64,000 bases of DNA from an uncultured Gemmatimonadales bacterium. GTDB taxonomy: Bacteria > Gemmatimonadota > Gemmatimonadetes > Gemmatimonadales > GWC2-71-9. The notes under the pieces were generated by a model, which had not been told where the DNA came from, did no database searches, and was given only the letters and a program-made list of their open reading frames with translations. The stretch spans positions 96,001 to 160,000 of the forward strand of contig CAVYSW010000010.1 in the NCBI GenBank assembly GCA_963771275.1. Reading direction: 5' to 3'. A program made the translations under genes and the position numbers. Position 1 is the first letter of the stretch, and the number at the start of each line of letters is the position of its first letter. This document shows, in pieces, positions 27,357 to 59,900 of the stretch.

Positions 27357-27426
27357 GACAGTACCGCTTTCGCCAGTCGCGACGCTTCCGTAGGTTGGGG
27401 ACCACGTGGTTTCGGGGAGATGGCGC

Positions 27427-28326
27427 ATGAGCGTTCTGGGTGAGGCCGGTCGGACCCGGTTGAGCATCCCGGCGGTGCGGCCGGATCGGCCCGTCGATCC
27501 GTTCCTCGCGGCCGTGCGCGAGGCCGCCGGCGCGGATTATACCGTCTACGGGGAGATCGGCCGGGCTGGGGACGGCAGCATCGGGTACCTGGCGCGCGAC
27601 ACGCGGCGCGACGGTCTGGTCGCGCTCAAGCTGGCCTGCCGCCCGGGCGCGCCGGAGGAGTTCGAGCTCGAGGTCGTGCAGGAGCTGCGGGACGATCTCC
27701 CGGCGTTCGACAAGTTCTGCGCGAAGTGCGGCGGCGCCCTGCGCGCGTGGGGCCGGTTCTGCCCGCATTGCGGCGCGGAGGTCTTCGGGGACGTCGGGCC
27801 GTGGTCCCCGGAGGAGATGCGCCAGGCGGTGCTGGACTTCGCCGGCGACCGCTACGACATCCTCGGCGAGATGCGCAGTCAGGGCGGCCGGATCTACTTC
27901 GCGCTCGAGAAGGCGTCGGGCCGGATCGAGGCCTTGCGGCTGGAGAAGAAGGGTGCGGAGGAGTTCGCGCTCGGACTCACCGGCGTGCTGAAGCCGATCG
28001 TCCAGGGCGCTGCGCCGCCCCCCCCGCCCCCGCCCCCGCCCCCCCGGCCGCGCGCGGCGCCGCCCCCGGCGCCCCCCGGGATCTCCGCGGCACGCGTCGA
28101 GCCGGCGCGCCCCGGGTTGACGGCGCCCCCGCTCGCTGCCCGGCCGCGCCCTGCGGTGCCGCCGGCGCCGCCACGCCCGCCCGCTCGGGCTGCACGCCCG
28201 TGGGATGAGTGGATTGCACGCGCGCGCCCGCTGTGGGACGACCTGCTGCAGAGCCCCGCAGCCATCGTGGCCCTCGTCGTCATCGGCATTCTGGTGTTGG
28301 TGCTGGTGCTCGCGCTGGTCACCTGA
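27427..28326 (+). CDS. Tail-anchored protein: two kinase N-lobe-like fragments flanking a double zinc ribbon, Pro-rich linker, C-terminal TM
   Basis: YTVYGEIGRAGDGSIGYLARD...LVALKL; CAKC..CPHC; YDILGEM...IYFALEKASGRIEALRL; no HRD or DFG; terminal hydrophobic helix. Confidence 0.75.
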   Translation: MSVLGEAGRTRLSIPAVRPDRPVDPFLAAVREAAGADYTVYGEIGRAGDGSIGYLARDTRRDGLVALKLACRPGAPEEFELEVVQELRDDLPAFDKFCAKCGGALRAWGRFCPHCGAEVFGDVGPWSPEEMRQAVLDFAGDRYDILGEMRSQGGRIYFALEKASGRIEALRLEKKGAEEFALGLTGVLKPIVQGAAPPPPPPPPPPRPRAAPPPAPPGISAARVEPARPGLTAPPLAARPRPAVPPAPPRPPARAARPWDEWIARARPLWDDLLQSPAAIVALVVIGILVLVLVLALVT

Positions 28327-28384: not shown

Positions 28385-28858
28385 CTACTGACAGGTGTCG
28401 CGCGTCCGGGCGACCTGGAACTGCACCCGACTGCCGGTCTTGGGAACCCGCACGATCTCCAGCGGGAAGACGTCGATGTCCAGTTGGTTGCAGGCCGTCG
28501 TGATCGTCACGAAGGCGCGGAAGATGTCCTTCTGTGTCCCGACGCTATCCACGTGGATCCGGTCGCCGGCCTTCATGCGCCCGGCCGCCGCGATCAGCAG
28601 CATCTCCTTGTCGAAGTCGACGTTCGGGAGCGACGGCGGATTGGGATTGGTCGAGGTCACGCGCTCCCACTGGCGCTGCCAGTCGAGCGCGTCGGTGACT
28701 GCGACGTAGGACGAGTCCTGCAAGCCACCGGCGTCGTCCTGGTAGACGATCGCCTCGGGCGCCACCGGCCGGAACGGCGTGGACACCACGATGGCGCGGG
28801 AGCACGCGCTCCCGGTGAGGCCGGCGGCAGTCAGCAGTAGCGGAATCCAGGGTTTCAT
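28385..28858 (-). CDS. Lipoprotein with PrcB-C-like domain
   Basis: GSA-C lipobox; W..QW...P.LPNVDFDKEMLL...G and P..IVRVPK pattern; starts 40 bp after the tssM stop. Confidence 0.7.
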   Translation of the reverse strand: MKPWIPLLLTAAGLTGSACSRAIVVSTPFRPVAPEAIVYQDDAGGLQDSSYVAVTDALDWQRQWERVTSTNPNPPSLPNVDFDKEMLLIAAAGRMKAGDRIHVDSVGTQKDIFRAFVTITTACNQLDIDVFPLEIVRVPKTGSRVQFQVARTRDTCQ

Positions 28859-28898: not shown

Positions 28899-31800
28899 TT
28901 ACGGTCGGCACACGAGCCGCGAGAAGTAGCCCGGTTGTAGGAGGGGTTCTCCCACCGGGGTGATGCTGCCTTCCACGGCATATGTCGTTCCCTCCCGCTG
29001 GATGTTCCACACGACCCGGAACTCGCCGCGGGAGCGCGCCTCCCAGCGCGCCTGCCCGAACAGCCGGAAGACGCCCCACTGCTCGGGATAGCTGAGAATC
29101 TCGAGGTCCCGGCCTCCCACAGTGACGGACAGCGACGCGCCGCGCGCCTGCTCGGCGACCCACTGGAACACTTCGCTCTGGGTGGCGTTGCTCTGCGTGC
29201 GGCTCATCGGGTGCCCATCGATCACGAGCTTGACGCCCCGCGTGCCGGGCGGCGGGGACAACCGCACCGAGAAGCCGAGCCGGGGTCCCTGACCCTGGGC
29301 GTCGAACCACGTGTTCGCCACGCGCATGGCGCGGTTGTAGAAATCCACGAACGCGCGCGAGATCGCGGGGTTCGGGGCGTTCAGCACGTACTCGTTCGCG
29401 CGCCGCACGAGCGCGCCGCCGAGCGCCTCGGCGTTGAGCCGCGCCAGCTCCCCGTCCTGCGGGTGGAAGATCCGGGCCACGTCGCGCAGCTGGGCCGCCG
29501 ATCCCGCGGCGCTGAACGGGAACCGCGTCATCACCTGGTTGTAGTCGGTGCAGACTGCGCGGATCTGCCCGGCGATCTGCTGCCCCGGCAGCCGCTGCAG
29601 CAGCGCCTCCACCCGGGCGAGCGGATCGTCGAGCAGGCGCCGCATGCTGCCGCCCACGTCCGCCGCCTCGTCCGCGCTGCTGAAGGTCCGCACGAGATCC
29701 TGCGCGGCGCCGCGCGCGGCATTTGCCTGGCCGAGGGCCGCCGTGCGCTCAGGATCCCCACCGGCCGAAACCTGCTGCAGCGCCCGCGCGAGCGCGTCCA
29801 GCGCCGTGACGTAGCTGCGATTCGCCTCCACGATGAGCTGGTCGCCCGCGGCCGGCATCACGGCGTGCACCGGCTGGAACACGCGTCCCAGCACGACGGA
29901 GTCCACGCCGGTGTTGGCCGAGACCACGGCAAGCAGCTGCAGCAGCGGCGACCGCGGCGCGGCGAGCGCCGTGATGCCGGTGGCGGCGCCACCCACCCCG
30001 CCGGGGAGCGTCACCTGGGCCGCTCGCAGGAAGTTGCGCCACTGCGTCACGTAGTCCGCCTCGTAGCGCGCGCGCAGCGTGCGTGTGAGGTCGCCGGCGT
30101 TGCCCCCCGCCGCCGCCTGGCAGCTCAGCGCCTGATAGATCCAGTCCTCGCCCGGCGCACTGAGCTCCCCCTTCGCGAACGCGTCGTGGACCAGCCGCCA
30201 GCCGTCGGCGCTGAACGCCGGCGGCACCTCAGCCGTCACGCGGACCAGCGCGTCCGTGAACCGGATCGGCGGCCGGCCTCCGGCCGCTCGGCTGAGCAGC
30301 GACTGGTAGACCCGGTCGACGTCGCTGAACCCGGTCAGCATGGTGCACGCGCGCGTCGCGAGCATCGCGTCCGGCGCGACCGCGCAGGTCGTGCCGCCGC
30401 CGCACAGCTCGCCGCCGTAGAACCGCAGCTGGCGAACGGCGATCGTCCGATCCTCGCCCTCGAGTCGCACGCCCACCGGCGAGCGTCGCAGCAGCGCCTC
30501 GCCGGCGTCCGGCGTGAGGTGGTCGGGCTGAGACGTCACCATCAGGTAGGCGGCCACGCGCCCGTTGGCGCTGTCCAGCGAGACGCCCTCGACGTTCGCG
30601 GTGAGCGCCGTGAGCTCCCGCCGCACCGAGTCGCGGATGCCGTTGAGGAGGAACGACTGCAACGCGTTCCAGTAGACGGACCGGGCCGGGGCGGCCATCG
30701 CGGCGCCGCGGTAGAGACCCCACCGCAGACGCCAGGGCGGCCCGTGCTCCGCGTAGCCGTGCAGCGTCTCGAGCTGGGTCCGCAGCGCGTCGAGAGCGCG
30801 CAGCGCGAGCGGCAGCGGCTCCGAGGCCGCCATCCCGTGCACGGCTTGCGCGGCGCGCACCACGCGCGAGGAGAGCAGGCGGTTGCCGATGAACGAGACG
30901 GTGAAGCCGAGCGCGAACACCAGCCCGAGCGCCGCGACGGAGGCGAAGGCGACGCGCCGCAGCTGGCGCAGCCCGTGACCGGACTGGGTGAGGCCGAGCG
31001 CGACGCGATCCCGCTGGATGACCTCGTGGAACAACCCGTTGAGGAACAGCCACTGCGGCACACGTCGTCCCGGTCCCCGCGGGGGCTCGGCCTGCCGGGC
31101 CAGCGCGGCGCGCTCTTCCGCGGTGAGCACCTGCGTGGCCCGCACGGCGCCGGCGTCCGCCGACGGCGCGGCCGCGGCGGGCGCCCCGTCCACGACGATC
31201 GCGCGCACCCCGGCGAGATAGAAGCCCCGCAGGAACGGGCTCACCTCGAGCTGTCGTGGGCGGCACAGCTCGACGAGAAACTGGTCGGCCAGCGGCGCGA
31301 GCTTGCGCAGCTCGCGCGGAAACTCGTACGCGGTCGCCCGGTCCGCGCCGCCGGCGATGCGCGGCAGAAGGCGCAGCCGTTGCGCCGCGAGCGATCCGAT
31401 CAGCTCCTCGAGCGCGGCGCTGACGCGCTGGTGTTCCCGATCGGCGTGGGCGCCCGCCGCGATCGGTGGAGCCAGCCGCAGCGTGGCGCCGACCGCCTGC
31501 CGGCCCTCCTCGCCGGCCAGTTGGCCGACGAACTCCGGGAAGCAGCGGATGCGATCCGCTTTGGTGAAGATCACGTAGACGGGGAGCCGGATGCCCAGCG
31601 TCCGGGAGACGGTGGAGAGCCGCTCGCGCAGCACGCGAGCCGCGTTCACGACGGGCTCCTGGTCGCCCTTGACCAGGTCCTCGCAGCTGAAGCACACCAC
31701 GGCGGCCCGCGGCGGCTGCGGGCGACCGGCCAGCACGGCGGCGAGCCGCTTGGGCCGCAGCCGCTGCACCAGGTGGCCCCAGCGGCCGGGATCACCCACC

Positions 31801-32276
31801 AGCTTCCCGCCCGGCTCGACGATCAGCACGCCCCGGGCGTACCACAGGTTGACGTTCGTCGTCGGGGCGACACTCTGGCCGCGCGCGGTTTCGCCGGCGA
31901 GCAGGTCGGGCTCGAGCCCGGAATGGAGAATCGTGGTGGTCTTGGCGCTCCCCTCGGCTCCGAGCACCAGAACCAGTGGGAGATCGCTCAGGGCCCGTAC
32001 GCCCTGCAGGCGCGCCGCCGCCAGACGCTGTCCCGCATGGGTGAACGCCGTGTCGATTTCGTCCGCGGCGGCGCCGCTCGCGCTGCGCCGCGCCCGCTGG
32101 TGCAGGAACCACCCGATCAGGACGGCGACCGCGCCGCCCAACAGGAGCAGGCCCCCGCGGAACACCCACAGGTTCCAGCCCTTGAGCCCCAGCGCGCCGC
32201 CGAGCCACCACACGAGCAGGGCGAACACGCCGTACACGGAGAGCGTAGGTAGCGCGGACCTCACCGAGCGTTGCAT
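28899..32276 (-). CDS. tssM: T6SS membrane complex protein TssM (IcmF/ImcF)
   Basis: Two N-terminal TMs, LPLVLVLGAEGSAKTT, RLPVYVIFTKAD, PFLRGFYL, third TM, WGLYRG, Y..QWRNFL, RFPF and WGVFRLF; 1125 aa. Confidence 0.92.
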   Translation of the reverse strand: MQRSVRSALPTLSVYGVFALLVWWLGGALGLKGWNLWVFRGGLLLLGGAVAVLIGWFLHQRARRSASGAAADEIDTAFTHAGQRLAAARLQGVRALSDLPLVLVLGAEGSAKTTTILHSGLEPDLLAGETARGQSVAPTTNVNLWYARGVLIVEPGGKLVGDPGRWGHLVQRLRPKRLAAVLAGRPQPPRAAVVCFSCEDLVKGDQEPVVNAARVLRERLSTVSRTLGIRLPVYVIFTKADRIRCFPEFVGQLAGEEGRQAVGATLRLAPPIAAGAHADREHQRVSAALEELIGSLAAQRLRLLPRIAGGADRATAYEFPRELRKLAPLADQFLVELCRPRQLEVSPFLRGFYLAGVRAIVVDGAPAAAAPSADAGAVRATQVLTAEERAALARQAEPPRGPGRRVPQWLFLNGLFHEVIQRDRVALGLTQSGHGLRQLRRVAFASVAALGLVFALGFTVSFIGNRLLSSRVVRAAQAVHGMAASEPLPLALRALDALRTQLETLHGYAEHGPPWRLRWGLYRGAAMAAPARSVYWNALQSFLLNGIRDSVRRELTALTANVEGVSLDSANGRVAAYLMVTSQPDHLTPDAGEALLRRSPVGVRLEGEDRTIAVRQLRFYGGELCGGGTTCAVAPDAMLATRACTMLTGFSDVDRVYQSLLSRAAGGRPPIRFTDALVRVTAEVPPAFSADGWRLVHDAFAKGELSAPGEDWIYQALSCQAAAGGNAGDLTRTLRARYEADYVTQWRNFLRAAQVTLPGGVGGAATGITALAAPRSPLLQLLAVVSANTGVDSVVLGRVFQPVHAVMPAAGDQLIVEANRSYVTALDALARALQQVSAGGDPERTAALGQANAARGAAQDLVRTFSSADEAADVGGSMRRLLDDPLARVEALLQRLPGQQIAGQIRAVCTDYNQVMTRFPFSAAGSAAQLRDVARIFHPQDGELARLNAEALGGALVRRANEYVLNAPNPAISRAFVDFYNRAMRVANTWFDAQGQGPRLGFSVRLSPPPGTRGVKLVIDGHPMSRTQSNATQSEVFQWVAEQARGASLSVTVGGRDLEILSYPEQWGVFRLFGQARWEARSRGEFRVVWNIQREGTTYAVEGSITPVGEPLLQPGYFSRLVCRP

Positions 32277-32283
32277 GGTGGTC

Positions 32284-32979
32284 TCAGCTCCCCATGCCGG
32301 CCAGCCGGGAGATGCCGGAGCGCAGCGACAGGGCGTAGAGCGCGAACAGCAGCAGCGCGAGCCCGAACGCCGCCAGAGCCGACCACTTGAGCCGCGGGAG
32401 CCACCGGTCGGGCGTCACCTCGGGGCGCTCGCCTGGCGGCAGGCGCCACGCGGCGGCGAGGTCCGTCGTGGTCCCCCGAATGCGCTGGATCTTCTCGTCG
32501 GTCGCGGTCATCAGCGCCTGGATGTCTCCCCCGCCCCCGGCGCTGTACTGCCCGCGGAAGCCGAGGATCAGACACAGTTGATAGACCTCGAGCACGTCGG
32601 CGATGTCGTCGGAGTTCTCGCGCGCGAGCAGCCCGCGGAGATTCTCGAAGAACGTGCGGCCGCCCATGTGGTCGCCGAAGACCTCTTCCTGCAGCGGCAT
32701 CCGCGGCCACTCCGCGAAGGCCGGCAGGCTGGAGGTGAGCACGGCTTCGTCGAGATACACGACGAACGCGTACACGGCCAGGCCGACCTCGGTCCCGCCG
32801 TACCCCAGCTGTCGTGCCTCGCGATCGGCCTGCGCGATCAGCTGCTTCGCGTGGTTGCGGAATGCCGTGGCATCGGCCGCCACGTCGCGCCCGGCGCGGA
32901 GCCGCGCGCCCGCCGTGAACGCTTCCTGCAACCGCAGGGCGAGCTGGCCGCGGCGGCCGGCTGGACGCGGGTCGCTCAT
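32284..32979 (-). CDS. tssL: T6SS protein TssL (DotU), no OmpA domain
   Basis: YAFVVYLDEAVL, W...PLQ..F, GG..FF, LEVYQLCLILGFRGQY, C-terminal TM. Confidence 0.93.
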   Translation of the reverse strand: MSDPRPAGRRGQLALRLQEAFTAGARLRAGRDVAADATAFRNHAKQLIAQADREARQLGYGGTEVGLAVYAFVVYLDEAVLTSSLPAFAEWPRMPLQEEVFGDHMGGRTFFENLRGLLARENSDDIADVLEVYQLCLILGFRGQYSAGGGGDIQALMTATDEKIQRIRGTTTDLAAAWRLPPGERPEVTPDRWLPRLKWSALAAFGLALLLFALYALSLRSGISRLAGMGS

Positions 32980-33012: not shown

Positions 33013-34356
33013 TCAGAGAACGGCAAGGACGTTGAGCTCCTTCACGCGGGTGGCGTCAGGGGTGTAGATCCCGATCTCGCTCGACTGCACAATGGCCTGC
33101 CAGCACGGTCCATCCAGCGTCACCGCGAAATAGTGATGCTGGCTGCGCACCGGTATCTCCGCCGGCGGCACGGGGAGGTGCGTGAGCCCCAGGGCCGGCA
33201 GGCCTTCCTTCACCAACCGCACGATGTGGCGGGCCGAGCAGACTTTCAGCAGGCGCGGCAGCTGGACGGCCGCGTTGGGGTCGGGTGACTCGAGCGCCAC
33301 CTCCAGCACCCAGCGCGCGGGGTGAAGGGCGCGGTTGTCCCCCACCGTGCCCGTGAACAGAAACTCGCGGGAGCGCGTGAGCGGGACGGTCACGTACCGG
33401 CTGGGCGCCACGACCTCGAGGTTCGCGCGGATCCACCGGTCCAGCTCCGTGAAGCACTTCTCCAGGTGGTCGTGGTCGTACACGGGCAGGTCGCGCGGAC
33501 TGGTATCGAGCGTGAACGTGCACAGCGCGCCCGCCAGGCGGGCGAGGTCGGTGTAGACCTGCTCGGGGCTGGAGCGGCGTGAGGTCAGATGGTGGCGCAG
33601 GGGCCCGAGGCTCGAGTGGATGGTATGCAGCATCCACAGCCGGGCAACCTGTTGCGCCGGATCCGCGGCGTCCGAGCCGCCTTCCCGCCGGGTGCCGGCC
33701 AGGGCGTCGCTCTGCGCCGTCAGGATGTCGGTCAGGCGGGCCAGCAGGTCGATGATCCGGCGGCTCGCGCCGATCTGGAGACATGGCGGGATGTACTCCA
33801 GATCGTACACGAAGTGCCCCGACCCGTCCCGCTTGACGCGGGCGATCGGCAGCTGGATCGCATCCGTGTCGCGCTCCGATTCGAGCACCAGCGCAAAGTT
33901 CTTCCGGCCGACGCGCACGACCTGGCGTCCGACCCCGGTCGTCTCGTCGCTGACCGCCTCGTCCTCCCCGACGTATCGCACCCCCTCGGACTCGCCGGCC
34001 TCCATCGCGCAGTTGCGGCTGCCGTCCCGGTAGGGGGGCACGACCAGCATCACGACACGGCTTTGCTCGGTGGGCAGGAACAGCTCGCGGATGTCGCGCG
34101 AGGCGGGCACCGGATCGCTGTCCGGGAAATGAAACGCCAGGCCGTCCGGCATCACGCCCCGGGCGTGCACCAGCGCGACGACACCGTTGTGCAGGGCGTC
34201 CGCGTCCAGCTCACAGCCCAGCAGCCCGTACGGAGTCGGGAACAGGTGCTGGAGGGCGAAGCCGATCGCGTTCTCGAAATACCGGTTCTGGGCCTGGAAG
34301 TGATGCTGGGCGAGATGCATCCCCTCGCTCCAGACCAGCCGCGACAACGGTCTCAT
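33013..34356 (-). CDS. tssK: T6SS baseplate protein TssK (copy 1)
   Basis: VWSEGMHLAQHHFQAQ, GVMPDG, IPPCL, LAGALCTF, YDHD and GLPALGLTHLPVPP. Confidence 0.93.
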   Translation of the reverse strand: MRPLSRLVWSEGMHLAQHHFQAQNRYFENAIGFALQHLFPTPYGLLGCELDADALHNGVVALVHARGVMPDGLAFHFPDSDPVPASRDIRELFLPTEQSRVVMLVVPPYRDGSRNCAMEAGESEGVRYVGEDEAVSDETTGVGRQVVRVGRKNFALVLESERDTDAIQLPIARVKRDGSGHFVYDLEYIPPCLQIGASRRIIDLLARLTDILTAQSDALAGTRREGGSDAADPAQQVARLWMLHTIHSSLGPLRHHLTSRRSSPEQVYTDLARLAGALCTFTLDTSPRDLPVYDHDHLEKCFTELDRWIRANLEVVAPSRYVTVPLTRSREFLFTGTVGDNRALHPARWVLEVALESPDPNAAVQLPRLLKVCSARHIVRLVKEGLPALGLTHLPVPPAEIPVRSQHHYFAVTLDGPCWQAIVQSSEIGIYTPDATRVKELNVLAVL

Positions 34357-34462: not shown

Positions 34463-34537
34463 TTGCGTACGTCGCATGGCGTCCGCTATGATAACACGTG
34501 CTTCCGATATTATGCGGTCCCGCCCCGGCAGCAGCAA
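34463..34537. promoter_or_regulatory. Pair of opposed sigma70-like promoters
   Basis: Plus strand TTGCGT(34463)-18 bp-TATGAT(34487-92); minus strand TTGCTG(34537-32)-17 bp-CATAAT(34514-09); AT-rich patch. Confidence 0.5.
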
Positions 34538-34580: not shown

Positions 34581-36200
34581 ATGACCGGCGCCGAGTTCCA
34601 GGCCCGCTACCAGCTCCTCGCGGAGATCGCGACCGGGGCGGTGCGAACGCTGATGGCCCGCGATGCACAGGGCGTGCTCGTCATGGCCCACTTTCTCGGG
34701 CCGGCGGTGGGCGAAGGCACGCAGCGCCTCATCGCCGCGGACCGGCTCCCGGCTCAGGCCCGCGGGGTCCTGCTCGAGCGGTGCGTCGTGGATGGCCACG
34801 TCGTGCTGATCACGCGGGTGCTCGATGGCTTCGTGGATTTCGGCTCCTGGCTGCGGGCCCAGGGGGGCACGGCCGCGCCCGTGGTCCAGCCACCGGCCGT
34901 GACCCAGCCGACCCCGGTCGCCCCGGCTCGCGAGATGCCACCGACCCCGCCGGCGCCCGAGGTGGCTGCGCCGCCCGCCCCGCCGGCCCCGCCCGCGAGC
35001 GGCGAGTTCACGCAGATGTTCGGGCGCCCCGGGGGGGCGGCCGCCGCGCCACCGCAGGCGACGGCACCAGCGCCGGCGGCCGCCACCGTGCGGCTGCCGA
35101 CGGTGGAGCGATCCGCCACGCCGCCGCCGGTGACGCCGTCTCCCCCGACCGTTCCCTCGGCACCCCAAGCCGGCGAGTTCTCGCAACTGTTCGGTGCACC
35201 GCAGATCCCTGTGCCGCCGCCCGTTGCGCCCCCCATCTCTCCGACGCCGCCGGAGGCCGCCGAAACCGTGCGGCTGCCGACCGTCGAGCGGACCGTCGAG
35301 CCTCCGGCGGCGCACGGTGGCGAGTTCACCCAGCTGTTTGGCGCGCCAAGCGTCCCGAAGCCTCCTGCGGGGCCGCCGGCTGCTGCGCGGCCGGCGCCGG
35401 AGCCTCCGCGAGCCGGGCCGCCGGTTGGGCAGGGGCCGCCCCCGCCTCCCCCACAGCCCTCGGTGCCGCCCCCCGCCCCGGTCGCGATGCCGCCCGCCGC
35501 GACGCCGCGTTCGGGTCCGCGCATTATGTGGAAGGGCGCCGCGGCGCCGCCACCCGTCGCGCCGCCATCAGCCCCCGTCGCGCCCGAGCCGCCCCGCCCG
35601 GCACCGCCGGCGGCCGCGCCGGCGGCCCCGCCCCCGCGACCCCCGGCGCCACCCCCCCGACCTCCGGCTCCGCCGCCCCGGCCCGTCGCCCCCCCTGCTC
35701 GGCAGGACGCCCCGGGTGAGTTCACCAAGCTGTTCGGCGCACCGAGCGACGGGAGCCCCACCGCACCGCCGCCGCGGCCCGCGCAGGCGGCCGGCGAGCC
35801 GCCGTTCGGTCGGGGGGGCCGCGACTATCGGGATGCGCTCGATAGCCTGCATCGGCCGCTCGACGAGCGGCCCGCGCCGGAGCCGCCGCGCGCGCCGCCA
35901 CCCAGACCGCCCATGGAGCCCGAGTTCCCCAGAGACCTCCCTCCCGGGTTCCCGCGCGACCCGCTGCCTCCGGTGGCCCCCCCGGCGGCCGAGCGCCCGC
36001 CCGTGGGCCTGTCGCCGGGCGGTTTCACGCAGGTCATTGCCGGCAGGTCCCAGGCAAAGCTGGGCGATGCCGCGGCCGAGTCGGCGATGGGCCAGCCCGC
36101 GGCGGAAGCCCCGCCGGGCATGCCGCGCTGGCTCGTGATCTCGTTGGTGGTGATCGGGGTGCTCGCGCTCGTCCTGATCGTCGCGATCGCGGTGTTCTAG
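34581..36200 (+). CDS. Pro-rich tail-anchored protein with a degenerate kinase N-lobe-like head and repeated GEFTxxFG motifs
   Basis: AGGGAG RBS then ATG 34581; ~95 aa globular head; motifs at 35001, 35172, 35319, 35715 and 36018; C-terminal TM. Confidence 0.8.
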   Translation: MTGAEFQARYQLLAEIATGAVRTLMARDAQGVLVMAHFLGPAVGEGTQRLIAADRLPAQARGVLLERCVVDGHVVLITRVLDGFVDFGSWLRAQGGTAAPVVQPPAVTQPTPVAPAREMPPTPPAPEVAAPPAPPAPPASGEFTQMFGRPGGAAAAPPQATAPAPAAATVRLPTVERSATPPPVTPSPPTVPSAPQAGEFSQLFGAPQIPVPPPVAPPISPTPPEAAETVRLPTVERTVEPPAAHGGEFTQLFGAPSVPKPPAGPPAAARPAPEPPRAGPPVGQGPPPPPPQPSVPPPAPVAMPPAATPRSGPRIMWKGAAAPPPVAPPSAPVAPEPPRPAPPAAAPAAPPPRPPAPPPRPPAPPPRPVAPPARQDAPGEFTKLFGAPSDGSPTAPPPRPAQAAGEPPFGRGGRDYRDALDSLHRPLDERPAPEPPRAPPPRPPMEPEFPRDLPPGFPRDPLPPVAPPAAERPPVGLSPGGFTQVIAGRSQAKLGDAAAESAMGQPAAEAPPGMPRWLVISLVVIGVLALVLIVAIAVF

Positions 36201-37570
36201 CGTCCGCGCGTGGCTTCGCGCTGCGGCTCCGGCAGCAGGATCACCAGCTCCAGCTCCACGTCGGGAAGATCGGCCGGGGCGTAGACCGCGACGTTGCGGG
36301 CGAGCGCGATGCCATCCCAGTCGGTCCCCTGCCGGTTCAACTCGAAATACTGGAAGTCGAGCTTCACCGGGATGGCGGAGGGTGGCTGGACGACGTGCGT
36401 CAGCTCCACGCCGGGCAGTGCCTGCTTGATCAGCCGCTCGAGCCGGTCCGCCGCGCTCAGCTTGAGCAGGCGCGGGGCGCGCCGCACGTCGGCCACCTTG
36501 GCGCTCGAGCGCACCGCGAGGAACATCTGCGGTGCCTGGAGGTAGCGGTCGTCGTCCAGCGCGGTCGCGTAGACCGACGGCGACACCAGGCGGAGCGGCA
36601 GGGACACGCAGCGCTCCGGCACCACCGTGGCCAGCAGCTCGCGGAGCTGCTCGTCCAGCGTGGTGAAGCATCCGGCCAGGTCGGTGTGGTCATACGCCGG
36701 CAGATCGCGCGGGTGAATCCGGCCGGAAAACGTCGTGAGCGCGCCCGCGAGCCCCATCATTGCCTCGTACAGTGCCGCCGGATGCGCGTGCCGCTGCTCC
36801 AGCAGATGCCGGGCCATCGGCAGATGCGAGTTCACCGTGTAGAGCAGCCAGAAGCTCGCGACGTCGCCGACGCCGAACTCGGCGAGGCTCTGCTTGCGCT
36901 GGCGGCGCCCGCCCGCGATCGTCGCGCTCTTGGCCGACAGCACTTCGACCAGCCGGCGTACCATCGCGACGAGGTACTCGCTGGCCGAGAAGTCGATCAG
37001 CGGCGGCACGAAGTGGGGGTCGAGCTCGTAGTCGCCGGTGGGGAGCCGGCGGACCCGCGCCACGGGGAGCGCGGAGCTTCCCTCGAGCGACTCACCGCCC
37101 ACCAGAATGCGGAAGTTCTTCCGCGCCACCATCACCGGCTTCTCCGACAGGCCCGTGTTCTCGTCCCGCCGCGTCACGACCTCGGCGCGGTAGCGCGTGC
37201 CGGCTTCCAGCTCGGCGGTCGCCACGTTGTGCCCGCCGACCCGGTATTCCGGAATCGTCAGGTGCACGTCCAGCGTCTGCTGGTCGGGGTCCCAGCATTC
37301 CTTGAGCGGTCGGGGGGGCGGCGCGGCATCCGCGCCCGGAATGTCGAACGACAGCCCGTCCGGGAACACGCCGGCGGCGGCGGTGAGCGCCAACGATCCG
37401 GCGGCGAGCTCCTCGCGGTTGATATCGAGCCGGTGGAATCCCCACGGGAAGAACGTCAGCCCGGCAAGCCGGAAGCTCAGCAGATCCTCCAGGTAGCGAT
37501 CCTGAATCTGCAGGTGCTGGGGAGTAAGCAGCACACCCTTGGACCAGAGAACCGGCTGCAGTTGGCGCAT
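36197..37570 (-). CDS. tssK: T6SS baseplate protein TssK (copy 2)
   Basis: MRQLQPVLWSKGVLLTPQHLQIQD, GVFPDG, FVPPL, LAGALTTF, YDHTDL, ALPGVELTH and YFEL. Confidence 0.93.
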   Translation of the reverse strand: MRQLQPVLWSKGVLLTPQHLQIQDRYLEDLLSFRLAGLTFFPWGFHRLDINREELAAGSLALTAAAGVFPDGLSFDIPGADAAPPPRPLKECWDPDQQTLDVHLTIPEYRVGGHNVATAELEAGTRYRAEVVTRRDENTGLSEKPVMVARKNFRILVGGESLEGSSALPVARVRRLPTGDYELDPHFVPPLIDFSASEYLVAMVRRLVEVLSAKSATIAGGRRQRKQSLAEFGVGDVASFWLLYTVNSHLPMARHLLEQRHAHPAALYEAMMGLAGALTTFSGRIHPRDLPAYDHTDLAGCFTTLDEQLRELLATVVPERCVSLPLRLVSPSVYATALDDDRYLQAPQMFLAVRSSAKVADVRRAPRLLKLSAADRLERLIKQALPGVELTHVVQPPSAIPVKLDFQYFELNRQGTDWDGIALARNVAVYAPADLPDVELELVILLPEPQREATRGR

Positions 37571-37662
37571 GAGGCGATAACCTAGCGCCGGAGGGCATGA
37601 AGTCCAGTCTGGCGTGCCGTCGGGCTGGCGCGTGCCCCCGAGGGCTGACATGTTTCCGCGGC

Positions 37663-39140
37663 ATGCCGTCGCGCGCTGAAGTCCATCTCGATGCGGGGGT
37701 TGCGCCCCGGCCCGACTCGCCCGGCGCTCCGCTCCCCGATCAGCTGCTGCCGATCGCGCTGGTCGGCGACTTCAGCGGCCGCACGCATCGTGGCCCGGTG
37801 GTCGTCGGGCCGCCCCTGGAGGAGCGGCGGCCCGTGCGGGTCGATCGCGACACGCTGGACCAGGGGCTTGCGCACTTCGCGCCGGAGGTCCCGCTCGCGC
37901 TTGGGGGCACGGCGGCGGACGCGGCCGTGCGATTCTCGGCGCTCGACGATTTCCACCCGGATGCGCTGCTCGCGCGGTTACCGGTGTTTGCCATGCTGCG
38001 GTCCATGCGCGAGCCCGCGGGCGAGCGCGGTGGGGGGGGACGGCGGACCCCGGCGCGCCCGTCGCGCCTCCGAGCCCGCTCGACCTGGTGCATCAGGGTG
38101 ACCTGCTGAGCCGTGCGGTCGCCGCGACGCTGGGGGAGTCGGGAGGGGGTGCCGACCCGCTGCAGGCGTTCGTGCGGCGGCTGGTGGCGCCGCATCTCGT
38201 GCGGGAGGCCGGGCCCGCGGAGCGCGTCTGGCGAGCGCAGGTGGACGCCACCGCCGGCGCGTTGCTGCGCGAGATCCTCCACGGTCCCGGCATCCGCGCG
38301 CTCGAAGCGCTGTGGCGCGCGGTCGACTTCCTGGTGCGCCGGGTCGACAGTGATGCCGAGCCCCCGTTCTATCTCGTGGACGTGAGCCAGCCGGAAGCCG
38401 CCGCGGACTTGGCGGCGGCCGGCCGTGTCGAGGACACGGCGCTGGTCCGGCTGCTCGGCGGTCCCCCGGGCGGGCGCTGGGGCGCGATCGTCAGCGACTT
38501 CTCGTTTGGCGCGGACCCGAACGACGCGATCCTGGCCGGGCGTCTGGCGGCGCTCGCCCGATCGGCCGGCGCGCCGTGGCTGGCCGCGGCAAGCCCGGCG
38601 CTCGCGGGCTGCCCGTCGCTGGTGGATCATCCCGATCCCGCCGCATGGGACCGGGCGGTTCCCGCGGCATGGGGCATGCTCCGCCGGCAACGGGAGGCGG
38701 CCTGGCTGGGGCTGGCGCTGCCGCGGTTCCTGCTGCGCCTGCCGTACGGTCCTGACACCGAGCCGTGCGCGCTACGCGACTGGCGGGAGACGACCGAGCC
38801 GCCGCGGCATGATCAGTATCTCTGGGGCAACCCCGCCTTCGCCTGTGCCTTGCTCCTGGCAGGGCGTCTCGGGCCGGGTGGAACCTGGCGTACCCCTGGT
38901 GGGGTACTCGACATCGGAGATCTCCCGCTGCACCTCAGCGCGGCGGATGGAGAAACCCGTGCGCAGCCCTGCGCCGAGGTGCTGCTGTCGGAGCGGGCGG
39001 CGCACCGGCTGCTCGACGCTGGCCTCATGCCACTCGTGTCGCTCAAGGACCGCGATGCCGTACGGCTGCTGCGGTTCCAGTCGTTTGCGGAGCCCGCGGC
39101 GCCGCTTGCCGGACCGTGGGGTGGTGCCGGGCGCGCTTGA
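37663..39140 (+). CDS. TssB-like plus truncated TssC-like fusion protein; frameshift at the G8 run (38032-38039)
   Basis: TssB-like GDFSGR, VRVDRDTLD and F..LDDFHPD; then, in another frame, TssC-like ILH....ALEALWRAVDFLV, LGLALPRFLLRLPYG, YLWGNPAF and GLMPL; ends before the TssC C-terminal domain. Confidence 0.8.
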
Positions 39141-54302: not shown

Positions 54303-56183
54303 CTACTTGGCCTGCGCCAGCCCCGCGGGAAGGAACCGCCAGGCGTACTCGACCGGCACGGCCTCGTTCTGCTGGTACTGCGCGCCGCGGTCCGCCGTCG
54401 CGAATCCGGCGTGGTTGACCCCGACGACGGCGAGCTTCGTGCCGAGCAGCGGGCCGCCACTCGAGCCGCCGATCCCGCCCAGCGTGTGGTAGGAGATCGA
54501 GTTCGACGTCACGCCCGACACGCTCATGTTCCCGCTCACGTCCGGCTGCAGCTGCTTCGCCTGCACGAGCGCATCCAGCTCGGCGGCTCCCGCCACGGCG
54601 TTCACGGTCTGCAGCAGCAGGAACACTCCCAGATCGGACTGGACCAGCGCCTGGAGCTGCTTCTCGTCGTCCGGCAGCCCCCGGAGCACGGCCTCGAGCC
54701 CGGTTTCCCGGGCGAAGGCGCCGACGGCCCGCTGCACCGCCGCCTGCACCTGGTCGCTCAGCGAGGCGTCCACGAAGCTCCCGACCCCTCGCCGCTGCGC
54801 CGTGACCTCGGTGCCGCCCGGGTAGGCCAGCATCACGATGTCCTCACCGGCCACTACCTGCTGGCCCCGCGCCAGCGGCAGCACCGGCACCCCTTGCGGG
54901 GTCCGCGTCGTGCGGAACAGGCCGAGGTCGTGCTCGCGTGAGGCCTGCACCGTCTGGGCGTCGACCTCGTACATGGCCCCCGGCGGAAACGCGATCCGCC
55001 ACCCCGCGATGGCCGGCTTGAACACGATGTCGCCGTTCTTGCCGAGGTTCAGCGTGGCCTGCTTGATCATCTCGGCGCTGGCAAACGGCAGGTCGACGCA
55101 GTGACGGTTCGTGAGTACCCAGCCGGCTGCGTTGATCAGGAAGCCGGTGCACTGCGAGGTCGTGAGCAATGCCAGATGGTCGTTCTGATCGGTGCTGAGC
55201 CCGACCTTGCCGTCCTGGGTTCCCCGAATCCGCAGCCAGCCGGCCTGCTCGTTGAACCAGCCGATCCGGAACTCGATGAGCCCGACACCCGCGGCATAGC
55301 GCTGCGTCACCGTGGGCCCGAACCGCCGGTCATCCTGGACGGCCTGGCGCTGCTGGGCGATCTCCTGCTTCTGGCGGTCGAGCTCCGCCCGGTTCTGCTG
55401 GAGATTCTGCGTCAAGGACTCGGCCTGGCTTTGCCACTGCGTGGCCGTCGAGGCGAGCTGCGAGAGCTGCTGCTCCAGCGCCGCGCGGGCGTCGCCTTGG
55501 GAGCGCAGCTCGCTGCTCATCGCCGTCAGCTCGCCACGCAGCGCCGCGGCCTTGCGCTCACTCAGCACGAACACCAGCCCCACGGCTACGGCCCCGGCGA
55601 CCGCCACGAGGATGAGCGCGACCTTGAGTCTCCGACTGGCCTTCTCCTGCGCCAGCTTGACGAACGCCTTCATCACCGCCGTCTGGCTCGGGCGGCCGCT
55701 CGTCGCGGCCGCGGCCGCCTGGTCGCGGGCCATGACGTACAGGCCCGTGAGTCCTGAGCCGGAGGAGGACCCGCCACCCGCCAGTGGAGTCGCGGGCGCC
55801 TTCGCGGCTTTGGGCGGAACGTAGGCCGTGGCGGGGGAGCCCCACGCCGCGGGTATCGGGGCGGTTGCCATGCCCTCGTCCGCGACGACCTCGAACTGGG
55901 CGGCGGGCCCGTTCGGGCCGAACATGATCGTCTGGCCCGCCCGGATCTCGCATTCCTTGACCTGGCGGCCGTCCACGAAGGTGCCGTTGCGGCTGTTTTC
56001 GTCCCGCACGTAGAACCGGCCGCCGACCTCGTAGAGCGTGGCATGATGGCCCGAGACCACCACCTCGCTGGGGCTGAACTGCAGCGTGCAGTCCGGGCTG
56101 CGCCCCACCGCCACCTCGAAGCCCGTGAGCTCGAAATCGGTCCCAGCCCTGCTTCCCGACGTGAAGACGAGCCGCCCGCGCAT
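54303..56183 (-). CDS. FHA domain - TM - coiled coil - trypsin-like serine protease (626 aa)
   Basis: GGAGG RBS then ATG 56183; FHA motifs VGR, VSGHHA and SRNGTFVDG; TM; Q-rich coil; TNRHCV, HDLGL and GGSSGGPL triad. Confidence 0.9.
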   Translation of the reverse strand: MRGRLVFTSGSRAGTDFELTGFEVAVGRSPDCTLQFSPSEVVVSGHHATLYEVGGRFYVRDENSRNGTFVDGRQVKECEIRAGQTIMFGPNGPAAQFEVVADEGMATAPIPAAWGSPATAYVPPKAAKAPATPLAGGGSSSGSGLTGLYVMARDQAAAAATSGRPSQTAVMKAFVKLAQEKASRRLKVALILVAVAGAVAVGLVFVLSERKAAALRGELTAMSSELRSQGDARAALEQQLSQLASTATQWQSQAESLTQNLQQNRAELDRQKQEIAQQRQAVQDDRRFGPTVTQRYAAGVGLIEFRIGWFNEQAGWLRIRGTQDGKVGLSTDQNDHLALLTTSQCTGFLINAAGWVLTNRHCVDLPFASAEMIKQATLNLGKNGDIVFKPAIAGWRIAFPPGAMYEVDAQTVQASREHDLGLFRTTRTPQGVPVLPLARGQQVVAGEDIVMLAYPGGTEVTAQRRGVGSFVDASLSDQVQAAVQRAVGAFARETGLEAVLRGLPDDEKQLQALVQSDLGVFLLLQTVNAVAGAAELDALVQAKQLQPDVSGNMSVSGVTSNSISYHTLGGIGGSSGGPLLGTKLAVVGVNHAGFATADRGAQYQQNEAVPVEYAWRFLPAGLAQAK

Positions 56184-56351
56184 ACCAAGACCTCCGCTAA
56201 GCCGTTGCGGGTTCGCAACATCCCGGACCAAGCCGCCTACCCAATCTACCGGGCGCCCTGCATCGCGCCAGAGTGAAACCTCGGCGGACTCGACGCGGGG
56301 CCCGATTCTTTCTATCCTATGGGGTCTGAAGGCGACCGAGGGCACCAAGCG

Positions 56352-59300
56352 ATGAGCGTCAGCATTACCTGCACGCGGTGTGGCCAGCCGATGAGCGCGA
56401 GCGACCGGTTCTGCGCCAACTGCGGCACCGGGAACCCGATGGTCGGTCGACAGGCCGATTCCAGTGGCTCCGGGTCGGTGTGGGATGCCGTGCAGCAGTC
56501 GCTGCGGGTGGCGACCCGCGGGGAGTTCGACATCGCCGGTGAGTTGGGCCACGGCGGGATGGCCGCCGTCTATCTGGCGCACGACATCGGGCTCGACAAG
56601 AAGGTCGCCATCAAGGTCATGGCGCCCGCCCTCATGGCCGACCCCAGCATGATCGGCCGGTTCCAGGACGAAGCGCGCACCGTCGCGAAGCTCGAGCACC
56701 CCAACATCGTGACGGTGCACGCCGCCCGGCAGGCGGGGGGTCTGTACTTCTTCGTGATGAAGTACGTCGTCGGGCGTGACCTCGACTCCATCCTCGAGCA
56801 CGGGCCCCTGCCCCTGGCGGTGGTCCAGGCCGTGATCTATCAGGTGGCGACGGCGCTCCAGTACGCGCACGGCCGCAATGTGATCCACCGCGACATCAAG
56901 CCCAGCAACGTCATGGTCGACCTCGAGGGCAACGCGGTGGTGATGGATTTCGGCATCGCGAAGCTGCGGGGGGCGCGCGGCCATACCATGGTCGGCGCGG
57001 CGATCGGCACGCCGCCCTACATGAGTCCCGAGCAGTGCCTCGGCAAGGAAGTGAGTCCCGCGTCCGACCAGTACTCGCTCGGGATGGTCACCTACCATCT
57101 GCTCACCGGCCGGCCGCCGTTCAGCGGCGAGCCGATCCCGGTGATGCGGCAGCAGATCGAGGTCGACCCGCCGCCGATCGAGCACCTGGCGGAGGGCCCG
57201 TGCCCGCCGAAGGTCCGCGACGGGGTCCGCCGCATGCTGGCCAAGGCCCCGGAGGATCGCTGGGGGTCGGTGGTGGAGGCGGCTCGCGCGCTTGGAGGGC
57301 ACCCGGTCGCGGTCGACGACCCGTTGCGCGACGAGATCGCGCGCCTGTCTCAAAGCGGCGGGTTCATTCCGCCGACGCAGATCTTCACGACGCCGCTCAG
57401 CCCCTCGCCGCAAGTCGGCTGGACACCCGGGCCGGTCGCGCCCACCGTGCCGATCACGCCGACCCCCTCGGCGCCCGTGACGCCGCCGGCCTCGGTGCCC
57501 TTCGCGGCGCCGCCATCGGCTCCCGTGACCCCGCCGTCAGCCGCACCGCTCACGCCGCCGACGGTCCCATACACGGCGCCCCCGGTGATCCAGCCATCGG
57601 CACCGCTCACGCCGCCGCCGTCGGGCCCGCTCACGCCGGCACCCGTGCCACCCTTCACGCCGCCGCCCATGGCGCCGGCCACGGTGCCGTACACGCCGTC
57701 GATGGCGGGTCCGGTGAGCACCCCCCCGAGTGGTATCGGCGAGCTGCCCCCAATGGCGCCGCCCGTGGTGCCGGCCACCGCGCTCGTCCCACCGGACGCG
57801 CTGCAACCCGCCGGGCTCGCCGCGGCGCCCGCCACGGCGCCGATGCCTGCGGCGGCGCCGAGTCGCCCACGCACGGGCCCCGTTGCCGCGGCCGCGCTCA
57901 GGCCTCAGCCCAAGCCGCCCTGGCTGCTGATCGGCGGCGCGGCCGTGGCGGTCGCGGCCGTCGCGGTCGTCGTCATGCTCGCCTTGCGGCAGCCCGCCAC
58001 GAGTGACGTGACGCTCGCGGTGGCGCCGCCCGAGTTGAATCTTGGCGCGGGGCAGGAAGGGACATTGTCGATCGACGGCGTGCCTGGTGGGACGCCGGTC
58101 GCGTGGCGCTCGAGCGACGATGCCGTGGCCACGGTCGATGCGGACGGACGGGTCCGGGCCGTGCGGGAGGGCCGGGCGCTCATCATCGCGTCTGCCGCCG
58201 ATCGCGCCGATACGGCGGTCGTGACGGTCGCGCCCGGAGCCGTGGCCGAGCCGCCCCGGACGGCGCGGCTCGAGGTTCGCCCGGCCGACACGCAGGTCCA
58301 GGTCGGCGACGCGGTCACGCTGCGGGTGGAGGCGTTCGATCAGGGCAACCGCAGCATGACGGCACCCCAGGTCCGCTGGCGGTCGTCCAACGAGCGGGCC
58401 GTGGCGGTGACGCAGGCGGGGACCGTGACGGGGCGGGCGGTTGGGTCGGCCACCGTGACCGCCGCGGCGGGCGGCGTGGAAGCCAGCGCCATCATCCGCG
58501 TCCTCGCCGTCGCCCGGCCCGCGGACACCACCGGGCCGCCGCCGCCCCCACGGCGCGTGGCGGTCGTCGCCGTCACCCCACCGCGCATCGAGCTGGACGT
58601 CGGCCAGACCGCCGCGGTCATCGCGGAGGCGCGGGACGCGCAGGGCAGGCCGTTCGACCGACCGATTGCGTTCCGATCGGACAACGCAGGCGTGGCGAAC
58701 GTGTCGGAGCGCGGCGAGGTGCGGGCCGTGGCACCGGGAAACGCGGTGATCGTGGCGGCGAGCGACGGGATCGAGGGCCGCGCCATGGTCCAGGTGCGCG
58801 CGCCGGCACCACCGCCACCGCGGGACACCGCCGTGGCTCCGGCACCCGCGCGAACGGTCACGTTCGCCGGCATCGCGGCGGGGAGCGCGCATACGTGCGC
58901 GGTGGCGTCGGGGGATGAGGCCATCTGGTGCTGGGGCGGAAACGACCGAGGACAGATTCAGCCCGGCTCCGGACAGGGAGCGCGCGTGCTCCAGCCGGTC
59001 GCCCTGGCGGGGACGGCGGCCGAGCTCGCGGCGGGCGCCGAGCACACATGCGCGCTGGCCGACGGCCAGGTGACGTGTTGGGGGCGCAACACCGAAGGGC
59101 AGTTGGGCACGAGCGACCTCAAGGCCACCCGATACACGGTTCCCGGCCTGCGCTTCGAGGAGATCAGTGCCGGTCCGGCGCACACCTGCGGCCTCACCAC
59201 CGCCGGCCAGGTCTACTGCTGGGGCAAGAACGACATGGGGCAGCTGGGTGACGGGTCCAGCAGCCGGCGTGCAAAGCCAACGCCGATCGCGGCGAGCGCC

Positions 59301-59900
59301 AAGTTCACGGCCGTTACCGCCGGCGGGTCGCATACCTGCGCGCTGCGCGCGGACGGCGCCGCGGTCTGCTGGGGCAGCAACTGGAGCGGGCAGATCGGCA
59401 GCGGCATGATCCAGTCATTGCCGTCGCCGACGGGCGTGGGAGGCGGCGTGAAGTTCCGCGAGCTGGTGGCGGGTGGCGACCACACCTGTGGTATCTCGAC
59501 TGCCGGCAAGCTGTTCTGCTGGGGCAAGAACTCGGCGGGCCAGGTAGGTGACGGTTCCAAGAGCCAGCGCAGCGCCCCCCAGGAGGTGCAATCCAAGGAG
59601 AGCTTCACGCTGGTGGTCGCCGGCAAGGAGCACACCTGCGCGCTGGCGTCCGGCGGCCGGGCATTCTGCTGGGGACGCGGCCGGGAAGGCGAGATCGGCG
59701 ACGGCACCACCCAGGATCGCACGACGCCGACGGCGGTTCGCGGCAACGAAGCCTTCGCGTCGCTCGCTGCCGGCGACCAGCACACGTGCGGGGTTACGAA
59801 GGCGGGCGCGGTGCTGTGCTGGGGAGCGAACGCGGGCGGACAGCTCGGGTCGGGTGGCAACCAAGCGGCCGCGGCGCCCGCTCCGGTCAAGCTCCGCTGA
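56352..59900 (+). CDS. Membrane Ser/Thr kinase: zinc ribbon, kinase, Pro/Thr repeats, TM, three Ig-like (Big_2) domains, 7-blade RCC1 propeller
   Basis: CTRC..CANC; GHGGMA, VAIK, HRDIKPSN, DFG and GTPPYMSPE; three [WF]RS....V...G.V repeats; seven HTC...CWG repeats. Confidence 0.93.
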   Translation: MSVSITCTRCGQPMSASDRFCANCGTGNPMVGRQADSSGSGSVWDAVQQSLRVATRGEFDIAGELGHGGMAAVYLAHDIGLDKKVAIKVMAPALMADPSMIGRFQDEARTVAKLEHPNIVTVHAARQAGGLYFFVMKYVVGRDLDSILEHGPLPLAVVQAVIYQVATALQYAHGRNVIHRDIKPSNVMVDLEGNAVVMDFGIAKLRGARGHTMVGAAIGTPPYMSPEQCLGKEVSPASDQYSLGMVTYHLLTGRPPFSGEPIPVMRQQIEVDPPPIEHLAEGPCPPKVRDGVRRMLAKAPEDRWGSVVEAARALGGHPVAVDDPLRDEIARLSQSGGFIPPTQIFTTPLSPSPQVGWTPGPVAPTVPITPTPSAPVTPPASVPFAAPPSAPVTPPSAAPLTPPTVPYTAPPVIQPSAPLTPPPSGPLTPAPVPPFTPPPMAPATVPYTPSMAGPVSTPPSGIGELPPMAPPVVPATALVPPDALQPAGLAAAPATAPMPAAAPSRPRTGPVAAAALRPQPKPPWLLIGGAAVAVAAVAVVVMLALRQPATSDVTLAVAPPELNLGAGQEGTLSIDGVPGGTPVAWRSSDDAVATVDADGRVRAVREGRALIIASAADRADTAVVTVAPGAVAEPPRTARLEVRPADTQVQVGDAVTLRVEAFDQGNRSMTAPQVRWRSSNERAVAVTQAGTVTGRAVGSATVTAAAGGVEASAIIRVLAVARPADTTGPPPPPRRVAVVAVTPPRIELDVGQTAAVIAEARDAQGRPFDRPIAFRSDNAGVANVSERGEVRAVAPGNAVIVAASDGIEGRAMVQVRAPAPPPPRDTAVAPAPARTVTFAGIAAGSAHTCAVASGDEAIWCWGGNDRGQIQPGSGQGARVLQPVALAGTAAELAAGAEHTCALADGQVTCWGRNTEGQLGTSDLKATRYTVPGLRFEEISAGPAHTCGLTTAGQVYCWGKNDMGQLGDGSSSRRAKPTPIAASAKFTAVTAGGSHTCALRADGAAVCWGSNWSGQIGSGMIQSLPSPTGVGGGVKFRELVAGGDHTCGISTAGKLFCWGKNSAGQVGDGSKSQRSAPQEVQSKESFTLVVAGKEHTCALASGGRAFCWGRGREGEIGDGTTQDRTTPTAVRGNEAFASLAAGDQHTCGVTKAGAVLCWGANAGGQLGSGGNQAAAAPAPVKLR

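Follow-up and report, generated by a model that had tools for sequence, protein, structure and literature searches.

The window analysed here is a stretch of 64,000 nucleotides and contains a complete type VI secretion system (T6SS), with tssM, tssL, tssK, tssB, tssC, hcp, tagJ, tssA, tssE, tssF, clpV, vgrG and PAAR genes identified by Pfam matches and tssG by inspection. The reverse strand carries tssM (28899..32276), tssL (32284..32979) and, upstream of these, tssK1 (33013..34356). A second tssK gene on the same strand, tssK2 (36197..37570), encodes a protein 36% identical to TssK1. On the forward strand between the two lies an ORF (34581..36200; referred to below as gene X), the stop codon of which overlaps that of tssK2 by four bases (CTAG). 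Gene X had been placed between two tssK genes in the preliminary description, and both flanking genes, in the opposite orientation, do indeed encode TssK (PF05936, TIGR03353). The ORF has an alternative start at 34476, but the start was set at 34581 because homologues open with MTxxEF. TssJ (PF12790) was sought in five genomes and found in none of them. A lipoprotein-like gene of no known family (28385-28858, reverse strand), which directly follows tssM in many Gemmatimonadota loci, is a candidate TssJ substitute.

The product of gene X, of 539 amino acids, has the organisation of a tail-anchored scaffold: a kinase N-lobe, a Pro-rich linker bearing Thr motifs and a transmembrane (TM) helix. 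Proline accounts for 138 of the 539 residues. The C-terminal end is a 23-residue hydrophobic helix, evident from the sequence (36129..36197, forward strand) and present in 108 of 163 homologues; it probably serves as a tail anchor, with the N-terminus in the cytoplasm. Five motifs of the form G[EG]F[TS]xx[FI] are distributed along the Pro-rich chain, all encoded on the forward strand: GEFTQMFG (35001..35024), GEFSQLFG, a rare Ser variant (35172..35195), GEFTQLFG (35319..35342), GEFTKLFG (35715..35738) and the membrane-proximal GGFTQVI (36018..36038). The family form of the last of these is GPSE[FY]TR[IV][ILV], mostly 33-55 residues ahead of the TM helix. The same strand encodes two copies of a lineage-specific repeat, TVRLPTVER (35085..35111 and 35265..35291). 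All seven motifs had been listed previously, and all were recovered in a single frame at the positions then given. The pattern G[ED]F[TS]xx[FLM] was observed four times in the linker and at most once in any of 20,000 shuffles (nine shuffles with one occurrence), and a repeated 9-mer of the TVRLPTVER type arose in one of 20,000 linker shuffles. Pairwise comparison of the four GEF copies gave 24 identical, 15 synonymous and nine non-synonymous codon pairs, these pairs not being independent, and the two TVRLPTVER copies differed at three codons, all synonymously, in agreement with the earlier remark that the copies differ in synonymous codons.

The membrane tether and the Pro-rich chain of the preliminary description were borne out, but a folded domain at the N-terminus (approximately residues 1-95; 34581..34865, forward strand) had been overlooked. 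These residues were modelled with an AF2 pLDDT of 89 and are predicted to adopt the N-lobe fold of Hanks-type Ser/Thr kinases, with five strands and helix C, and no C-lobe. The top 50 matches listed by Foldseek were all protein kinases, the best having an E value of 3.4e-3, with none of the 50 reaching 0.001; VIA-align gave a Z score of 8.5 and an rmsd of 3.3 over 88 residues, and kinase-fold chains recurred all through its list. The acidobacterial N-domain profile also matched real kinases weakly (E about 1e-9), and a search of the ESM Atlas returned unnamed Gemmatimonadota and Acidobacteriota clusters, one weak kinase lead (0.78) and nothing else. A PDB sequence search with the N-domain profile yielded only spurious matches to designed repeats, and profile comparison with the kinase of the window yielded no match, so the kinase relationship of X is based on the fold searches and the weak profile matches. 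The position of the beta3 Lys is occupied by His in 100% of 190 aligned rows, the HRD and DFG motifs are also lacking, and the Pro-rich chain starts after residue 95. Judging from kinase anatomy, the N-lobe cannot be catalytic, because His replaces the beta3 Lys and the C-lobe is absent. A stand-alone N-lobe is an unusual form of pseudokinase. A single-sequence AF2 model of a 373-residue homologue was of low confidence (mean pLDDT 53.9) and has no bearing on docking between motif and N-lobe. The N-lobe has been lost from six X proteins, those of five Acidobacteriaceae and of genome G673; repeats, TM helix and the TssM motif described below are all retained in these cases, as are both tssK genes. 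An association of this loss with loss of tssK was considered and rejected, as the five Acidobacteriaceae genomes retain both tssK genes elsewhere; so was a link to disappearance of the TssM motif, which persists where the N-lobe is absent.

Searches of Pfam and NCBIfam identified no family match for the gene X product. A profile built from 19 N-domains retrieved 1044 representatives at 50% identity, 502 of them at an E value of 1e-10 or better; the weak-scoring end of this set may include real kinases. Named sources of homologues include Gemmatimonadaceae, Longimicrobiales and Bryobacterales, and gene X lies beside tssM on a plasmid of the cultured Gemmatirosa kalamazoonensis (NZ_CP007129.1). 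Longer or fused forms were sought, and the 47 proteins concerned contained no Pfam domain, which is weak evidence. Motif counts were taken from the 108 of 163 retrieved proteins in which the C-terminal helix is present, and excluded the remaining 55, of which many are short. These helix-bearing homologues mostly carry three to seven motifs, and acidobacterial members 3-15. When the core was defined without reference to its fourth position, that position was Thr in 386 of 402 motifs and Ser in 12; Thr was likewise found in 222 of 228 motifs from 30 acidobacterial X proteins. The residue at +3 to this Thr is F, I, L or V, and the motif accordingly has the Thr-strict character and the hydrophobic +3 residue of an FHA-type site. 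The preliminary proposal of a multivalent scaffold, tethered to the membrane and bearing a Thr motif under selection, is thus supported, GEFT being kept across two phyla with a near-invariant Thr, and the search for the motif in other T6SS loci that had been recommended gave a positive result in homologues of both phyla. TVRLPTVER fared differently: TVRLP(TVER) occurs in none of the 163 homologues and is not a family motif. Only a looser T-hydrophobic class is found, in 23 of 108 X proteins, with 123 T-x-x-hydrophobic sites observed and 86.5 expected. TVRLP fits the mycobacterial kinase consensus TX(X/V)-hydrophobic-(P/R) given in a passage of PMC6888350. In a targeted literature search, mainly of open-access main texts, no description of the X protein was found. 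Acidobacteria and Gemmatimonadetes plasmid T6SSs are grouped within subtype i4b in PMC9113992, the relevant passages of which are silent on gene X, and the parts of a review of bacterial pseudokinases (PMC12599244) that bear on this question have no heading for an N-lobe-only family and do not mention these phyla. X is a real, conserved and apparently undescribed accessory protein marking a T6SS variant with twin TssKs.

The distribution of X was compared with that of tssK in 401 Gemmatimonadota genomes and in a second sample, of 301 genomes belonging to the same phylum as an acidobacterial locus. Two unpublished genomes (G186 and G455) enter only the X, tssK and FHA-trypsin tallies of these samples. 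Among the Gemmatimonadota, X was found in 40 genomes and a tssK match in 47; X was present in all 39 genomes with at least two tssK matches and in none of the eight with a single match, three of these eight matches being weak and one lying at a contig end. Two or more tssK genes were thus present in 39 of the 40 X genomes, a co-distribution characteristic of T6SS accessory (Tag) proteins. In the second sample, tssK was detected in 34 genomes, four of which had at least two copies, and all four carried X, identified by a strong N-domain match in three and, by inspection, as an N-lobe-less X between the tssK genes in the fourth. The three strong N-domain matches were the only ones in this sample; weak matches were obtained in 60 other genomes, and the two that were traced proved to be kinases. 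A search for N-lobe-less X in fetched stretches of 13 of the 30 single-tssK genomes revealed none. With both samples pooled, X was found in 43 of 43 genomes with at least two tssK genes, and the 38 single-tssK genomes gave no strong X match. These counts overstate independence, because the genomes are related. Inspection of 30 genomes placed X between two tssK genes in 26. In phylogenetic analysis, the TssK pair formed one clade (support 0.997) split into two sister paralogue clades, consistent with a single, ancient duplication. X was detached from the tssK pair in G271, in G430-G432 and in five Acidobacteriaceae. In one genome (G147, 96% complete), X was present with no tssK match and no detectable T6SS; its X homologue (contig C8; L081:14341-15399) has two motifs and lies near kinase, PP2C and FHA-GAF-cyclase genes. 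The preliminary description had offered docking to TssK as one role for the motifs, and this connection is strengthened by the finding that X tracks tssK duplication in both samples. Since the locus is passed on in one piece, co-occurrence cannot distinguish TssK from TssL, TssA or the kinase.

A motif with the same core as the X repeats was found in TssM. The cytoplasmic loop of the TssM encoded in the window contains ATQVL (31125..31139, reverse strand), the family form being AT-x-[VIML]-F, and the T-x-hydrophobic-F core was present in the cytoplasmic loop of 51 of 53 cognate TssMs. AT-x-hydrophobic-[FL] occurred in 43 of 45 loops located by pattern, with 0.64 expected from shuffles; in the two exceptions, Ala replaced Thr in one and the other read ATGFF. 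All eight further full-length TssMs carried the motif, one fragment being set aside. The motif was absent from six control loops (four proteobacterial TssMs and two from single-tssK Gemmatimonadota) and from ten single-tssK acidobacterial TssMs. Among the protein families of the locus, only X (61/61) and TssM (52/54) were strongly enriched for the core, and TssM-type ATxxF motifs were found inside X in nine of 31 proteins. The sharing of this core by X and the TssM loop, together with its lack of strong enrichment in other families of the locus, suggests that the repeats and the loop may constitute one code with one reader. Such a shared motif, in which a single Thr and a single Phe can be mutated, offers an exact point of attack on baseplate docking and its timing.

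A kinase had also been invoked previously, and a kinase does usually adjoin tssM: in one set of loci, 19 of 24 have it on the far side of tssM, and, among Gemmatimonadota, it lies directly beyond tssM or its lipoprotein gene in 14 of 30 genomes. A single clade united thirteen kinases encoded in T6SS or X loci of Gemmatimonadota, whereas the adjacent acidobacterial kinases fell in different clades. The Hanks kinase of the window (56319..59900, forward strand), with intact VAIK, HRD and DFG motifs and with Ig and RCC1 domains, lies outside the usual tssM-adjacent clade, and proximity alone is weak evidence because the source genome encodes 39 Hanks kinases. The slot after tssM and the lipoprotein gene, which holds an active kinase in relatives, is filled in the window by a gene (27406-28326, forward strand; also present in G003 and G006) with two N-lobe-like segments, recognised by eye, around a zinc ribbon, followed by a Pro-rich linker and a C-terminal TM helix. 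In five loci (L061:2015-2803, L111, L112, L155 and L181), a CsgG-like protein is encoded next to the tssM-adjacent kinase. The relative, in the source genome, of the clade found beside tssM elsewhere is encoded in an operon that is unlinked to the T6SS (G000:C3:188277-193426; L149) and comprises genes for a zinc-ribbon double-FHA protein, the kinase (G000:C3:189170), a PP2C-like phosphatase and an FHA-trypsin.

The FHA-TM-trypsin protease of the window (54303..56183, reverse strand) retains the FHA residues GR, SxxH and NG and is a candidate, but non-obligate, reader of the motif. The preliminary description had proposed that X clusters this protease, but a general partnership is not supported: FHA-trypsin was found in 21 of the 40 X genomes, but also in 150 of the 401 genomes overall, approximately 129 genomes having FHA-trypsin and no X, and in two single-contig X genomes (G166 and G284), each with two FHA genes, none lies within 1 Mb of X. 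Tight linkage was observed only in family f7, in which FHA-trypsin is present in nine of 10 X genomes versus one of 61 others. Two acidobacterial X loci contain FHA-DUF4123 fusions, combining FHA with a T6SS adaptor domain, near vgrG or PAAR (L105:12343-13230 and L118:14157-15149). Single-tssK acidobacterial loci (L170, L171, L173, L174 and L176) have two or three FHA genes near tssK, and those read out encode FHA-TM proteins, some with an apparent lytic-transglycosylase-type C-terminus.

On the basis of its architecture, core conservation and co-occurrence, X is a tail-anchored accessory of a T6SS subtype of Gemmatimonadota and Acidobacteriota with two TssK paralogues. The reading we favour, to which we would give slightly less than an even chance, is that X presents, in multiple copies, a docking motif of the TssM type that serves the TssK pair or the baseplate, probably under the control of Thr phosphorylation. 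The motif would bind one conserved T6SS partner, most simply one of the TssK paralogues, since the second TssK accompanies X and the TssM motif, and since the TssK head contacts the TssL and TssM domains that lie in the cytoplasm, as described in passages of PMC6300606, which also describe TssG as retaining a pair of TssK trimers by means of short hydrophobic loops. The 4-15 copies on a long flexible tether would catch baseplates, or retain them, at the inner membrane close to TssLM, the tether either promoting docking or serving as a decoy. The kinase usually encoded beside tssM may phosphorylate the motif Thr and thereby switch binding, and the dead N-lobe, which is dispensable and can be lost, may recruit that kinase. 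Against docking to TssK stand the genome with X and no tssK match and the detachment of X from the tssK pair in G271, G430-G432 and the five Acidobacteriaceae. A basic pocket specific to TssK1 was not found, the TssK1-specific conserved residues including no obvious phosphate-binding cluster. A complex prediction for TssK1, TssK2 and a 35-residue motif peptide (score 0.00, mark 0.32) bears neither way. In a bolder form, which we regard as possible but somewhat doubtful, the subtype in these two soil phyla would have given up the TssJ and Fha arrangement in favour of a specialised second TssK, a TssM loop bearing T-x-hydrophobic-F, and a tether with half a kinase; this tether, carrying up to 15 repeats of the loop, would fish for baseplates by avidity and be tuned by a kinase that phosphorylates the repeats.

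The same strict Thr and hydrophobic +3 residue are also the signature of FHA recognition, and the main idea of the preliminary description can be generalised: in a phospho-Thr scaffold like MDC1, both the repeats of X and the loop of TssM would be phosphorylated by the locus kinase, and a lineage-dependent set of FHA proteins (FHA-trypsin, FHA-DUF4123 adaptors, double-FHA proteins) would cluster at the membrane complex. We consider this rather unlikely, though it is the main competitor. FHA domains usually demand less than the G-E-F that is conserved upstream of the Thr across two phyla. The loci share no FHA partner: FHA-trypsin was not found in 19 of the 40 X genomes and occurs without X in some 129 others, and the FHA genes of G166 and G284 lie more than 1 Mb from X. 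Nevertheless, the proportions of Thr (96%) and Ser (3%) fit pThr-strict reading, and several X copies read T-Q-x-F, like the TQXF sites of MDC1 bound by the FHA domain of RNF8 (in a passage of PMC11884936), just as some TssM loops read ATSVF, resembling the TTSVF of the GarA/OdhI peptide (part of PMC8546545). The distribution of FHA-trypsin in family f7, the FHA-DUF4123 genes of two acidobacterial loci and the kinase operon with FHA and phosphatase genes in the source genome point the same way, and there is a precedent in Agrobacterium, in which pThr14 of TssL recruits Fha (in the part of PMC3953482 concerned). The two readings can be combined, with the unmodified motif docking and the phosphorylated motif binding FHA. 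A different emphasis would make the N-lobe the active part: it would pair back-to-back with the kinase of the locus or, by way of the motifs in X, with further X molecules, and so activate or sequester the kinase or build a membrane lattice, the repeats being kinase substrates or self-ligands. The N-lobe is indeed well folded and conserved, the pseudokinase MviN dimerises back-to-back through its N-lobe (as reported in a section of PMC12599244), the thirteen Gemmatimonadota kinases form one clade, and, in the source genus, the kinase slot is taken by a second Pro-rich, TM-anchored protein that to the eye resembles an N-lobe; but six proteins have dispensed with the N-lobe while repeats, TM helix, TssM motif and both tssK genes remain, and this, with the scatter of the adjacent acidobacterial kinases over different clades, makes the reading improbable. 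The F-x-x-[LM]-F spacing is amphipathic in sequence, and the repeats could be short helices that hold the tether on the bilayer with no protein partner, analogous to the membrane-targeting sequence of MinD; we give this very little credence, given that the near-invariant Thr, the G-E-F and the fact that a short TssM loop carries this core as well all point to a specific partner. Other explanations together retain a small probability.

The proposed docking tether resembles several known systems in part. In enteroaggregative Escherichia coli (EAEC), loops 1 and 2 of TssG and cytoplasmic docking by TssM likewise involve short hydrophobic loop motifs that dock TssK trimers (in passages of PMC6300606); unlike that system, the X system repeats the TssM loop motif on a separate protein, and its TssK consists of two paralogues. 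The T6SS Thr phosphorylation pathway (PpkA-PppA-Fha/TagH, with pTssL-Fha in Agrobacterium; background on TagF and Fha in part of PMC6082577) shares with the X locus a membrane kinase beside tssM, a Thr-centred motif at the membrane complex and a Pro-rich accessory gene adjoining tssK. Unlike TagH/Fha, X has no FHA domain (it has no Pfam or NCBIfam match and a predicted kinase N-lobe fold), and it combines numerous Thr sites with a tail anchor; X loci also differ from this pathway in that they have no constant TagH-like gene and TssJ was not found. EssB/YukC of the T7SSb and MviN/ActPs3 are, like X, membrane-tethered dead kinase folds tied to a secretion or envelope machine (in the relevant part of PMC12599244), but X is not a complete two-lobed pseudokinase of either type: it has an N-lobe only, which can be lost, no C-lobe or extracytoplasmic domain, and no Pfam match. 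MDC1 resembles X in having several T-Q-x-F sites in a disordered scaffold, but is eukaryotic and unrelated, and serves as an analogy only. How baseplates find and dock on the membrane complex, and when, is only partly understood, from a few Proteobacteria; the motif shared by TssM and the tether suggests why some systems retain two TssK paralogues.

Several other genes were observed around these loci. Degenerate TssB-like and TssC-like ORFs lie in different frames (37597-39140, forward strand); the pair is a single fused ORF in G002, G013, G246, G327 and G368, and the split in the window is possibly a frameshift or an assembly error. A gene 9 kb from tssM (18944-19678, forward strand) encodes a fusion of a peptidoglycan-binding domain with a Peptidase_C70 domain of the papain-like kind. 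A LysM-domain protein (53268-54242, forward strand), encoded directly after DUF6931 and PAAR genes, is a possible cargo of the T6SS of the window. Finally, a methyltransferase of approximately 500 residues (MTS/DUF7782) is encoded beside tssK2 or tssB in both phyla (L061:13146-14675, L115:14037-15530 and L127:11368-12846).
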